From: an uncultured Poribacteria bacterium
GTDB lineage: Bacteria; Poribacteria; WGA-4E; WGA-3G
DNA length: 64,000 bases
Assembly: GCA_951813565.1 (NCBI GenBank)
Contig: OX638351.1
Span: forward strand, 1,856,001 to 1,920,000
Direction: 5' to 3'
Positions 4,986 through 39,398 of this stretch are shown here, piece after piece. Under the pieces are notes generated by a model, which was not told where the DNA came from, did no database searches, and saw only the letters and a program-made list of their open reading frames with translations. The stretch's first letter is position 1. Each line of letters begins with the position of its first letter. The position numbers were made by a program, and so were the translations under genes.

Positions 4986-5141
4986 CATAAATCAACGCCA
5001 AATGCGCGTGTGGCATTTGTCGGGACTAAATGTGCGACAGTCTCAATCATCACGCATATTGAGAAGGATTCATAAAAACATAGATGTTTTCTTAAGTTTA
5101 CACCCGCAGCATGCCGGACGCGCATGCTGCGTTGATTTATG
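4986..5141. mobile_element. CATAGG..CCTATG-type MITE with 20-bp duplication of a REP-like target; both ends interrupted by micro-elements
   Basis: ggtagagcgaagcgaaaccc occurs at 4966-4985 and 5142-5161. Confidence 0.6.
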
Positions 5142-5216
5142 GGTAGAGCGAAGCGAAACCCAACAAATCCGCGAAATCTGTGAAATCCGCGCAAATCCGC
5201 GCTTCAGACAATCCCC

Positions 5217-5245
5217 TTGACAACGCCCCCCACACCTGCTAAAAT
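5217..5245 (+). promoter_or_regulatory. Sigma70-type promoter upstream of the R-M gene
   Basis: TTGACA-17 bp-TAAAAT. Confidence 0.6.
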
Positions 5246-5326
5246 ACCCAATGTTGAATTTAACTTAGAACTTGCTGGAATGCGCGCTTAGAAGCGCGCC
5301 TACAGGGATTAGGGACTAATACCTGC

Positions 5327-8300
5327 ATGCCGCAACTCAACCTAAAACCGACCCACAAACCGATCAAAGACTATTACGCCACGCTGCAACAATACAGCGA
5401 AGCAAACATCACGCATGAAGGCGCGGTCAGTACACCTTTTGAAACGCTCCTCAATATATGTGCCAAACAGATAGATGCAATCTTCATCCTGCAATACGGC
5501 ATGGACACCGAAATAGGCAAACGTATCATCGTTGACGGCGCGATAAAAAATAACGGACTTTTCTTCGCCTATTGGGAAGCGAAAGATATAGACGATGATC
5601 TATCCAAAGCGGTGCATCAGAAACGGCAAGCGGGCTACCCATTCAACAATATCCTGTTTCAAACACCAGAACGCGGTATCCTGATACAGAACGGACAGAC
5701 AGCGCTTGATTTAGACATCTCCGACCCAGAAAACCTCATCACGGTGCTAAAACATCTGTTCGCATATACCACACCGACACATGAGGATTGGCACAAAGCC
5801 GTTGCCGATTTCAGAGCACACGTCCCTGACCTCGCAAACAATCTGATGGAACTTATTGAGCAGAGGTATGACAAAGATGCGGGGTTCAAAAAGGCGTTCA
5901 CTGATTTCTACGAAGTCTGTCGTACTGCCATCAACCCTAACCTCTCACGCTCCGCTGTTGAGGAGATGCTTATCCAGCACATCATCACCGAACGTATTTT
6001 TCGCACCGTCTTTGAACGCTCCGATTTTACCAGACGCAACATCATTGCACGCGAAATAGAAAATGTCAGCGATGCACTGATGCGGCACGCTGTCAGCAGA
6101 GATGCGTTCCTACAACCGCTCGACAGGTTCTATAACGCCATTGAAAAGGCAGCCACGCTCTTCAGAGATTTCTCACAAAAACAGCACTTTCTCAACACCT
6201 TCTATGAGAAGTTTTTTCAGGGGTTCTCCGAAGATGTCGCAGATACACACGGCATCGTCTACACACCGCAACCGATTGTGGATTTTATGGTGAAAAGTGT
6301 ATCGCATATCCTTGAAACCGAGTTCGGACGCTCGCTTTCGGATACGGGCGTGCATATTATTGACCCGTTTGTTGGCACGGGCAACTTTATCGTCCGACTG
6401 ATGCAGGACATTCAAGGCACAGCGTTAGAGGAGAAATATCGGCATGAACTCCACTGCAATGAGGTGATGCTCCTGCCATACTACATCGCCAGTCTGAACA
6501 TTGAGCAGGAGTTCTATCAGCGCACACAGACCTATCTGCCCTTTGAGGGCATCACGCTTGCGGATACCTTTGAACTGCTTGAAGACCAGCAGATGAAACT
6601 TTTTACACAGGAAAACACAGAACGCTTGGAACGGCAGAAGGCAGCGGATATGTTTGTCGTTATCGGCAATCCGCCTTACAACGCGGGGCAAGTTAATGAA
6701 AATGATAACAATAAAAATCGTAAATACGAAACGATGGATGAACGAATTGCCGACACTTATGCTATAGATTCAAGCGCGACGCTCAGAAATAAACTATACG
6801 ATCCTTACGTGAAAGCGATCCGATGGGCATCGGATAGAATTGGAGATGATGGTGTTGTTGCATTCGTGACAAACAATAGTTTTCTTGATGCTGTAATGTT
6901 TGATGGAATGCGGAAACATCTGGCACAGGACTTTGACGCTATCTACATTCTGGATTTAGGTGGAAACGCAAGAAAAGGATTGAAAATATCCGATGCAAAT
7001 GTATTCGGTATTCGGGTGGGTGTGAGTATCAATCTATTTGTCAAAACAAATCAGAATCCATTAGAGACAGCGCGCATCTTTTACTATCAAACCGATGACA
7101 AGTGGAACAAAAATAAGAAATTTGATTTTCTGAATGAAAATCAGCATACTGGCGATATTGAGTGGCAATTTATTAAACCTGATTCCCGGCATACTTGGCT
7201 TACCGAAGGACTCCACGCAGAATATGGCACCTTTGTACCTATGGGACACAAGGACACGAAAAAATTGAAGAATAGAGGCAAATCAATTTTTAGTCTCTAT
7301 TCTTTAGGCGTTGCTACAAACAGGGATATTTTAGCTTATTCATTTGATCTTGGTCTACTACAAAAGCGTGTTCACTCATTTATTGAAATATATAATACAA
7401 CTGTTGACCGTAAAAAAAGACACGACCCCAAAACACCTGTTGAGAGTTTAATTAATACAAATGACCCAAGCATCAAATGGACGCGTCAGGTTAAGGCATC
7501 ACTGAAGAAATTAGAATTAAGCAGCTATGAAGAGTCGCACTTTCGCAAGGCGTTGTATCGTCCTTTTTGTCAGAAATATCTTTATTTTGATAACTTCTGG
7601 AATGAGGAACGTTATCAACAGTATCGAATTTTTCCCACATCAGAGATCAATACAGAGAATCAAGTGATATGCGTTGGAGGATATGGTCGAAAGGAATTCG
7701 CTGTTTTGATGAGCACTTCTATTCCTGACTTAAACCTATATGGTGATCCGCATCAATGCTTCCCCTTCTACACCTACAGCGAAGACGGCACAAACCGCAA
7801 AGAGAACATCACCGATTGGGCATTGGCAGAATTCCGCAAACACTACGTCGATGACACCATCAGCAAGTGGAACATTTTCCACTATACCTACGGCATTTTG
7901 CATCATCCTGAGTATCGTGAGAAATATCAGGCGAACCTCAAGCGAGATCTGCCGCATATCCCGTTTGCACCAGATTTTTGGGGATTTGCAAACGCAGGCG
8001 CACAGTTAGCAGACATCCACGTTGCATACGAATCACAACCGAAATATGATGGACTAAAACAGATTGAAACACCAGATATACCGATAGATTGGCGTGTGGA
8101 GAAAATGAAATTGTCTAAAGATAAAACGCAGTTGGTCTACAACGATTTTCTGACAATAGACGGTATCCCTACGGAAGCTTTTGACTATAGGCTTGGCAAG
8201 CGTTCTGCGTTAGAATGGGTGATTGATCAGTATCGCGTGAAGGTGGACAAACGGAGTGGTATTGTGAACGATCCGAATCGTGCGGATGAACCGCGATATA

Positions 8301-37572: not shown

Positions 37573-37730
37573 GATATCTCTGTGTCTGAACACACTATTG
37601 TTGAATTATACGAAATCATTCAATCCCCAAGTTTCCCAAACCTCTGAGCAAAAGTTCTTGTGGGAGGGAAACCTTGTCCGCCCGATTTATGTGCGCAGAA
37701 GATAAATGCCGTACTAATAAAGTCCATCGC

Positions 37731-37759
37731 TTGACACACACTCATTTTTGCGTTAAAAT
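37731..37759 (+). promoter_or_regulatory. Sigma70-type promoter for fumC
   Basis: TTGACA-17 bp-TAAAAT. Confidence 0.6.
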
Positions 37760-37849
37760 TGAATTCGCTAAACAGAACGGACGGAACTTTACGCAATCAA
37801 AAAAGATAATTCCAGTCAACATAAACACAACTATTAAAAAAAGAGGAAT

Positions 37850-39244
37850 TTGATGAAAACACGGATAGAAAAAGATAGTTTAGGCGATGTAGAGGTGCCT
37901 GAGGATGCATATTGGGGTGCACAGACACAGCGCGCATACATTAATTTTGACATCGGAGATGAACGTTTTCCACCGACCTTCATTCGCGCGCTTGCTATTA
38001 TTAAGCATGCAGCTGCTACCGTCAATGTTGAACTCGGTGGGATTACCTCAGAAATCGCTGACCTTATCTGTCGTGCTGCGGATGAAGTCGCTGATGGCAA
38101 CCTCACTGACCAGTTCCCGCTTCGGATTTGGCAAACAGGCAGCGGAACACAAACACACATGAATATTAACGAAGTTATCGCAAACCGTGCGAATGAACTG
38201 ACGGGCGGAAATCGTGGAGCGAAATCTCCTGTGCATCCGAATGACCATGTGAACCGTTCGCAATCAACAAATGATGTTTTCCCGACTGCTATCCACATAG
38301 CGGTTGTTACGCAGTGTGTTGAACGTTTGTTGCCTGCAGCGGCAGCGTTACAAGGTGCATTAGAAGATAAAGTACAAGAATTTTCGGGGATTGTAAAAAC
38401 AGGACGGACGCATCTGATGGACGCGACACCATTAACATTAGGACAGGTATTCAGTGGGTATGTGCAGCAGATAGCACACGCGCAGGAAGCGATTAGGGAT
38501 ACGTTACCCCATCTTTATGAACTCCCTATTGGAGGCACGGCAGTCGGAACAGGATTGAATACACAACCTGATTATGCGGACGCGGTAGCATCTCGTATTG
38601 CTGAACGCACGGGACATCCATTTGTGAGCGCACCGAATAAGTTCGAAGCGTTGGGAAGTAGAGACGCACTCGTATCAGCAAGTGGTGCTATGAAACGGTT
38701 TGCTTGCGCCTTGTATAAAATTGCCAACGATATTCGTTGGTTAGGTAGCGGTCCCCGATGCGGTATCGGTGAATTGATTCTGCCAGAGAACGAACCGGGA
38801 AGCTCTATCATGCCCGGCAAAGTCAATCCGACTCAGTGTGAGGCAATGACGATGGTTTGCGCACAGGTGATTGGCAATGATACAACAATCTCACTCGCTG
38901 GTAGTGCAGGCAATTTTGAATTGAACGTATTTATGCCTGTAATCGCTTTCAATAGTCTACAATCGATTCGGTTGTTATCGGATGCGTGTGATGCGTTCCG
39001 TCAGCATTGCGTTGTTGGAATTGAAGCAAATTTATCAGTAATTGCTGGCTATCTGGAAGCATCTTTGATGTTGGTAACGGCGTTGACGCCACGGATAGGG
39101 TACGATGCGGCGGCAAAACTTGCACAGAAGGCACATCGGGAAGGGTCCACACTCCGCGAAGTAGCAGTTAAAGAAGGTGTGTTAACAGCAGAAGAGTTTG
39201 ATGCGCTTGTTGTGCCGAGTGAAATGGTCACGCCAAATTTATAG
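37850..39244 (+). CDS. fumC: Fumarate hydratase class II
   Basis: [26 protein letters not shown] signature. Confidence 0.97.
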
Positions 39245-39398
39245 CAAAACCAATGATTATTTATAGACTGCGAATCGTGTTTATGCAGGCTGGTAGATGC
39301 GGTGAATCAACGCCTCATGCACGTATGGCATTCGGCGGGAAAACGCATCTACCAGAGAAGTGTTCACATATTTTAGGTTTTACAATAAACAACTAAAG

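Follow-up and report, generated by a model that had tools for sequence, protein, structure and literature searches.

A 34-36-nt Tagged Hairpin Added at Many Sites in the Genomes of One Poribacteria Family

A stretch of 64,000 nucleotides from an uncultured Poribacteria bacterium (contig OX638351.1; hereafter, the window) contains copies of a very small repeat, a fixed seven-base tag (AATCAAC) joined to a hairpin, with a total length of only 34-36 nt. The unit has been added at many sites without duplication of the target, and it is very probably a real mobile micro-element. A preliminary description, made from the letters of the window, had already proposed that a mobile unit of very small size is recognised in its folded, single-stranded form, a proposal now upheld by filled and empty alleles in related genomes and by covariation within the hairpin. 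As to how it moves, our preferred but tentative reading, to which we would give somewhat less than an even chance, is that the unit is a non-autonomous single-strand element that enters nicks in repetitive extragenic palindromes (REPs) of the kind served by REP-associated tyrosine transposases (RAYTs), and that it is moved in trans by such an HUH enzyme.

Structure of the Unit

Simple monomers number 567 genome-wide, with a core of 32-34 nt, or 34-36 nt when the two bases on its 5' side are counted, and the latter length holds for both of the types into which they fall. In type A, the tag is followed by an 8-bp stem with a loop of 7-8 nt and a final C; in type B, a short bulged segment follows the tag, and then a stem of 7-8 bp, a loop of 4-5 nt and three closing bases. 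The two types share one helix and differ in whether the bulge is at its top or its bottom. Folding showed that the stem begins within the tag as first reported, i.e., its last two bases, CG, pair with the final C of the unit and the G beyond it, which brings the full stem, basal CG pairs included, to 10-11 bp. The end motif had been described as invariant, and seven of its bases are indeed fixed, but the eighth varies (G to A in 44 copies, 28 of which have the compensating change to a final T). As this eighth base covaries with the final base, it belongs to the stem, and the fixed tag is AATCAAC. The variants whose tag reads AACA gave no clear sign of retargeting, and about 23 of the 44 stem from one amplified context. 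Double-tagged forms make up six of 566 cores.

The observation that the arms of the hairpin change together also stood up to closer analysis. In 42 distinct type A copies from the window and from fetched loci, 91.9% of cells were paired and both sides changed in six of the ten pairs, values that none of 500 shuffles equalled and that slid partners (23-42% paired) did not approach; the rows were picked for having a stem and are related to each other, and kinship can beat shuffles, so this covariation is strong without being a formal probability. As the acting strand, the tag strand is slightly favoured by folding and the opposite one by the mismatch types, and folding does not prefer RNA over DNA. 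A scan of the window against Rfam at the gathering score returned no matches, and the asymmetric unit has neither the terminal inverted repeats nor the target duplication of a MITE (miniature inverted-repeat transposable element).

The tag in its 8-base form is the commonest 8-mer of the 5.43 Mb genome (G000), with 1270 occurrences on both strands. A pattern combining it with known stem starts recovered 922 tags in 528 clusters, of which 314 are single tags and 79 have tags on both strands, with stacks running head to tail; the unit is accordingly a high-copy extragenic hairpin in the 20-40 nt range, with one clear genic case. A degenerate pattern produced 15-668 matches in all 37 genomes of the genus plus G000, fewer in the sister genus, and 0-3, i.e., background, in other families. 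The genome scan with a covariance model that the preliminary description had called for found the unit in 78 of the 92 genomes that represent this Poribacteria family and in none of 48 outside it, in a survey that scored 50 candidates per genome and missed G017. Two small genera of the family hold decayed copies. The relatives with the same unit sequence are Candidatus Poribacteria; 18-mer matches outside Poribacteria (12 of them named) and one viral match are without the hairpin, and two further bacterial 18-mer matches are genuine units.

Filled and Empty Sites

Comparison of filled and empty sites in relatives, another step that had been suggested, provided the most direct evidence of insertion. 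The best case comes from beyond the window and is a lipoate-ligase-like gene (G000 4511528-4512346), in which an exact type B unit of 36 nt (G000:C1:4511630-4511665) lies in frame and adds 12 residues to the protein. Among the 20 best of 37 orthologues, three are filled and 17 are empty, with a gap of exactly 36 nt, and the insertion is into unique coding DNA with only one shared C at the junction. The insert is identical at 36/36 positions in the three filled species, with flanks of 60 bases on each side that are 75-90% alike, and a test of the monophyly of the filled alleles on 15 of the 20 rows (p-AU 0.147) neither showed nor rejected it. This same variant of the unit is present in G039, in 31 copies.

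Several copies in the window have counterparts without the unit. The copy at 4990 is missing at the same place in G152, the copy at 12487 has an empty form at the orthologous site in G064, and no tag lies between the same two genes at nine loci related to 12733-12868. For the copy at 22358, there is no unit in G122, G074, G125 or G029, and a decayed one in G064. At one intergenic site, G064 has the unit and G122 has an intact host repeat between the same two genes. The intergenic DNA of the genus turns over fast, and few sites align base by base.

Junctions and Hosts

The constant of insertion is a G after the unit on the tag strand (442 of 455 non-tandem monomers), which is equivalent to a C before the unit on the other strand. 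In class 1 junctions, the 5' bases CA stand after a C and the insertion is clean at C^G; G comes next in 95% of the 39 clustered contexts of this class, in which the preceding C is part of the definition, and the class is borne out by a filled/empty pair and by the lipoate-ligase-like gene. In the remaining 60 clustered contexts, the 5' bases vary. Filled/empty pairs with matching 25-nt flanks in related genomes, some of which may be paralogous copies, showed that a unit beginning and ending in G had taken the place of one or two target bases, namely the A of the GTAG tag of the host three times, and TA, CT and TT once each. In G039, comparison with the usual form of the host shows TT replaced by the unit and 5' bases that read AA, GA or A. 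It had been proposed that deletion of a copy restores its host, usually at a C^G step and with no clear target duplication: the lack of duplication is upheld and C^G is one class, but the other classes lose one or two target bases, and the deletion of 8411-8447 restores only a variant host, the common empty form having A rather than G after the cut (8444). The 5' dinucleotide in 70 outer contexts is CA in 29, TG in 17 and CG in 8. Because a unit inserted at C^G leaves a new C^G at its end, units can stack head to tail. The flanks offer one near-fixed base, the G on the tag strand, after which the next two positions lean to G, and they contain no conserved motif of 4-5 nt.

A repeated flank was found in at least 44 of the 70 outer contexts, compared with 32% of non-coding CG sites, and many of the remaining contexts are, by eye, decayed REPs; only one of the 70 is genic, though 80% of the genome codes. 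The interrupted hosts, again judged by eye, are of the GTAG type and correspond to the repeats found beside RAYT genes in the genus. Most copies have multiplied as passengers of larger REP doublets and MITEs, and, since whole MITEs carry units and the identical copies of G039 sit in about five contexts, the copy number overstates the number of insertion events. The possibility that the motif is simply a fixed internal part of a larger repeat, raised at the outset as a potential refutation, comes close to the present situation of many copies, but the unit has also been added at many sites.

Such amplification raises the question of whether the unit needs any enzyme of its own. A few chance captures could have been followed by short-patch gene conversion, template switching between palindromic repeats and hitchhiking, with the shape kept by a host role (as a protein site or an RNA hairpin) or by conversion itself. 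The 30 identical copies in about five contexts of G039 are what this would produce, as are the copies within whole MITEs that are present in one genome and absent in another, the chimeric flanks and double-tagged hairpins, and the 1-3 nt of shared letters often seen at junctions. About 70 distinct outer contexts in one genome are hard to obtain by homology, however, and neither the sharp length rule nor the exact insert in unique coding DNA, with its single shared C, is readily accommodated, and we regard this explanation as distinctly unlikely.

A Possible Route of Movement

In the reading that we tentatively prefer, the micro-element would parasitise the REP/RAYT system of one Poribacteria family. 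A protein would bind the folded single strand of the unit, and a piece of set length would be released, by cutting or by copying, in one of two registers, i.e., two 5' flank bases and the core, or one 5' base, the core and the G, with the 5' bases presumably picked up from the donor flank by the fixed-length cut. An HUH (Y1) enzyme nicking a REP would leave a 3'-OH end with a terminal C, to which the piece would then be attached, and the repair machinery of the host would close the other junction and trim off the tyrosine-linked end. As the nicking enzyme, a RAYT working in trans from the neighbouring REP that belongs to it would be the likeliest candidate.

The link to RAYTs is circumstantial: the hosts are RAYT substrates and the junctions come after C on one strand. 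The loss of one or two bases on what would be the tyrosine-linked side fits repair of an HUH nick, and the A of GTAG that was replaced in three filled/empty pairs corresponds to the C/T step of CTAC on the other strand. The available text of PMC3333891 describes E. coli TnpA-REP as cutting C/T at a site overlapping CTAC, joining strands in vitro and being able to prime synthesis; that of PMC8266576 reports that a Marinomonas enzyme also cuts C/A, and its guide rule would predict C/G for AACG. Y1 genes are also present in 33 of 37 genomes of the genus, in keeping with this reading. The HUH/Y1 mechanism of the preliminary description fits the host repeats, but no examined Y1 gene has the unit as its flanking repeat, and it stays a proposal.

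Several observations weigh against a RAYT as the mover. The C/G step is absent from the cleavage steps described for such enzymes in the available portions of PMC3333891 and PMC8266576. The unit was the flanking repeat of a Y1 gene at none of the 10 loci in G000 and at none of the 19 further RAYT genes that could be located among 30 loci; these genes are flanked by other repeats, within which the unit lies wherever it is present. There was no Y1 match at E 0.001 in G030 (one contig, with 240 copies of the unit), G017 or G021, and Y1 genes are missing from G146 too; they are also equally common in families without the unit (26/26 in f3). There is no bias to the gene strand (123 units sense and 146 antisense) and no consistent or clear replichore bias, the GC skew being too weak to place replichores. 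Four sequencing runs over 4600-24500, in which contigs break at repeats, gave no clean 35-nt skip among the joints listed. Some of the avoidance of genes could be due to purifying selection. Lastly, a unit that rode passively on RAYT cuts would have no use for a conserved tag and stem, and the conservation of tag, helix length and loop argues for direct recognition of the unit by a protein, which may be a different one.

That last point leads to the notion of a family-specific, host-encoded mover of the unit's own, which would bind tag and hairpin and find in REPs no more than single-stranded steps after C and a tolerated space. In addition to the conserved features, its favourable evidence includes the persistence of the unit across the family (78/92) while Y1 and reverse transcriptase (RT) genes come and go, and the one genic insertion with no obvious REP. 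A candidate protein was not forthcoming from the searches made. All 39 open reading frames (ORFs) with units on both sides are ordinary or spurious by their N-termini, and none is bounded in the manner of a transposon; the 60 largest multicopy families likewise include, among those listed, none with the unit at its boundaries; and a local profile of 30 Y1 segments found only known loci in G000, which has five IS200/IS605 TnpA and five RAYT-like matches. Weak Pfam Y1 matches in G030 and G000 were, on inspection, an SPFH-like protein. IS110 transposases are absent from G000, and a search of five genomes for IS91-type Y2 enzymes was negative, though its control was silent too. In all, a dedicated mover seems to us rather unlikely. 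The suggestion that a Y1/RAYT, IS110, TnpB or RT gene might be flanked by the same end as the unit found no match, and a Pfam scan of 45 of the 80 listed ORFs of the window, in agreement with the preliminary description, revealed no mobilising enzyme.

Movement through RNA merits consideration because of the junctions. Target-primed retrotransposition yields a fixed 3' junction and a ragged 5' junction, and the asymmetry of the unit's junctions would fit a small hairpin RNA reverse-transcribed at a nick. Against this, RT genes are present in just 16 of 37 genus genomes and in none of G035, G064, G028 and G039, the richest in units after G000, and of the two RTs that G000 has, one is a Drt4 defence RT and the other a CRISPR RT beside cas1 (the latter in 7/37). 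With the transcribed strand not preferred and the folding not favouring RNA, an RNA intermediate is improbable. The CRISPR arrays near the CRISPR RT have a period of 71-78 nt and spacers of 34-41 nt.

An origin as a terminal-only derivative of IS200/IS605, i.e., a palindrome-associated transposable element (PATE), moved by TnpA and with TTGAT as its target, would account for the lack of target duplication, and the genome has five TnpA and 49 TnpB matches that might supply the enzyme. In Haloquadratum, a terminal-only PATE of 52 bp may be mobile, as far as the available text of PMC3119063 goes. The reading of TTGAT as the ISDra2 target did not survive, since IS200/IS605 target motifs lie in the flank beside the cut and this TTGAT lies within the unit, three bases from its variable end. 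Nor do the TnpA and TnpB ends inspected, among those listed, share anything with the unit, which is a single hairpin and has no flank motif of 4-5 nt. The PATE reading is thereby largely refuted, and we consider it very improbable.

Least credible of all is a gene-less unit of the integron-cassette kind, or an off-target Cas1-Cas2 insert. The inverse core site of integrons resembles the tag, which ends in AAC and pairs with the junction G, and the length of the unit is like that of the local 34-41 nt spacers. The bases after the junction G are mostly G rather than the TT of a G^TT crossover, no integron integrase exceeded the cut-off in any of five genomes, and the target duplication that Cas1 would leave is absent. 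An attC cassette is disfavoured by these junctions.

Relation to Known Elements

The unit is among the smallest mobile DNAs, and it works like several known elements, yet falls outside the membership of REPs, PATEs, MITEs and attC sites. The comparisons that follow rest on the available portions of the papers cited. The small dispersed repeats (SDRs) of Nostocaceae (Elhai et al. 2008, Genome Res 18:1484, as cited in PMC5861425 and PMC4390886) are very small mobile repeats, of which SDR5 inserts precisely within the short palindrome HIP1. Like the unit, they are tiny, found in one bacterial lineage and without a named mover, but they belong to another phylum, and their sequence is apparently unrelated; the unit, moreover, targets REPs and itself and has two junction classes. 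With REPs, their paired forms (REPINs), bacterial interspersed mosaic elements and their RAYTs (PMC3333891, PMC8266576, PMC3116915, PMC6006769, PMC3733652), the unit shares an extragenic hairpin of 20-40 nt that is bulged and leaves its 5' tag unpaired, copies in the hundreds, tandem stacks, the lack of target duplication and junctions after C. It differs in that its tag is AATCAAC and not GTAG/GTGG or CGTC at the foot of the hairpin, that it moves as a single hairpin instead of an inverted doublet and inserts into REPs, and that it flanks no RAYT gene examined. The SMR-A and SMR-B repeats and PATEs of Haloquadratum walsbyi (PMC3119063) are likewise transposase-free, leave no target duplication and enter the palindromes of HUH-dependent elements, and the mover of the SMRs is there called enigmatic. 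They are, however, either 80-110 bp long and bounded by terminal inverted repeats, or IS605 remnants of 52 bp, unlike the asymmetric unit of 34-36 nt with no match to the IS ends inspected. IS200/IS605 elements share the absence of target site duplication, but their end hairpins are unrelated and the unit lacks a target motif in its flank. A literature search, not covering subscription papers and bioRxiv supplements, found no description of this repeat in Poribacteria.

The movement of repeats shorter than 40 bases has yet to be explained, for SDRs and SMRs and even for REPs. Hundreds of copies in dozens of genomes, a covarying structure, junction classes and exact filled and empty alleles make the problem testable in vitro, with an oligonucleotide of 36 bases and RAYTs of 160 residues. 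The unit also provides an example of 12 residues added in frame to a protein, and of REPs that support a layer of parasites. A bolder view would place it in a new class of mobile DNAs: one hairpin of 34-36 nt, acting as a second-order parasite, would hijack the nicks of domesticated HUH enzymes (or use a dedicated enzyme), be excised by a fixed-length ruler and not through its end sequences, recreate its own target and home between species with almost no flanking homology; the homing idea derives from the in-gene insert, identical in three species whose flanks are just 75-90% alike. As a whole, this view strikes us as unlikely.

Copies and Other Features of the Window

The window contains 19 matches to the tag, compared with an expected 3.7 (sd 1.9; a number reached by none of 100 shuffles). 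Sixteen are tag-plus-hairpin units or nests of units, at the places where some 15 copies had first been listed, and the other three (3339, 53922 and 55586) are tags alone, inside ORFs and without a hairpin. The covariance model gave 10 full-length matches at E 1e-5 or better and one weak tagless hairpin; it was built on 42 copies, and the four of these that come from the window match by construction. As described earlier, the copies lie in REPs, at MITE ends and within one another.

Type A units recognised by the covariance model begin with 4988-5022 (+), at a REP end, which has its tag at 4990, an 8-bp stem, a 7-nt loop and a closing G at 5022, and whose left and right flanks derive from two different host repeats. 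Facing it, at a REP/MITE end, is 5105-5139 (-; tag 5137), also supported by folding. The 35-nt unit at 9604-9638 (+), its stem closed by G 9639, is a clean C^G insertion in the 5' arm of a GTAG-type REP, and that at 12486-12520 (+), the one with an empty orthologous site in G064, has G at both ends and replaces two REP bases. The pair at 28618-28686 (-), arranged head to tail (28653-28686, 34 nt; 28618-28652, 35 nt), sits in a REP inside a larger repeat, and the same pair recurs genome-wide. Between the fumarase and rpoC genes, the unit at 39304-39337 (+), also identified by folding, lies in a REP loop and has G at both ends and two stem mismatches.

Type B is represented by the 35-nt unit at 8412-8446 (-), which by folding has a bulge at the base of its stem and a 4-nt loop and lies in the loop of a GTAG-type REP, and by another of 35 nt at 28432-28466 (-), in the loop of the same REP family. 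At 22358-22428 (+), folding shows a type B unit of 35 nt (22378-22412) inserted at C^G in the loop of an outer type A unit that has two additional nt in its 3' arm. A composite of nested and tandem units lies at 12733-12868 and was detected by the covariance model, with four tags on the plus strand (12735, 12763, 12793 and 12828) and one on the minus strand (12866); it includes a complete unit at 12791-12825 and a double-tagged hairpin at 12828-12866, and looks recombined. At the intergenic site 8378-8555, occupied in the window by a REP doublet that carries a unit, G122 has a whole RAYT gene between REPs.

The weak match to the model (E 0.033), at 25138-25158 (+), is a tagless hairpin with the same stem core and loop. 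Same-strand tagless units of this kind also occur genome-wide, and the window has a further example at 12777-12790. Followed by ATG, these same-core hairpins occupy a fixed place in the loops or arms of units, with at least four covarying stems, and their opposite strand reads as a look-alike tag. Many type B units (122 in the genome; 12753-12770 in the window) are preceded by an 8-nt near-duplicate of the tag, an arrangement suggestive of a single old insertion into another unit's tag, followed by amplification as a block.

Contigs of sequencing runs X7 and X9 skip 16976-17158, a strain-level indel unrelated to the unit. The genes of the window include a Type ISP restriction-modification gene (5327-8377), a PIN-domain ORF (18656-19225), a gene for an SRAP protein (32688-33473) and a fused nucleotidyltransferase-HepT ORF (34685-35530). 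An ORF of 425 aa (61945-63222, -) has a weak N-terminal HNH match only and no NCBIfam family. The product of rpoC (39399-45059, -), at 1886 aa, is some 640 residues longer than the 1147-position family model, with the extra sequence in its C-terminal half.

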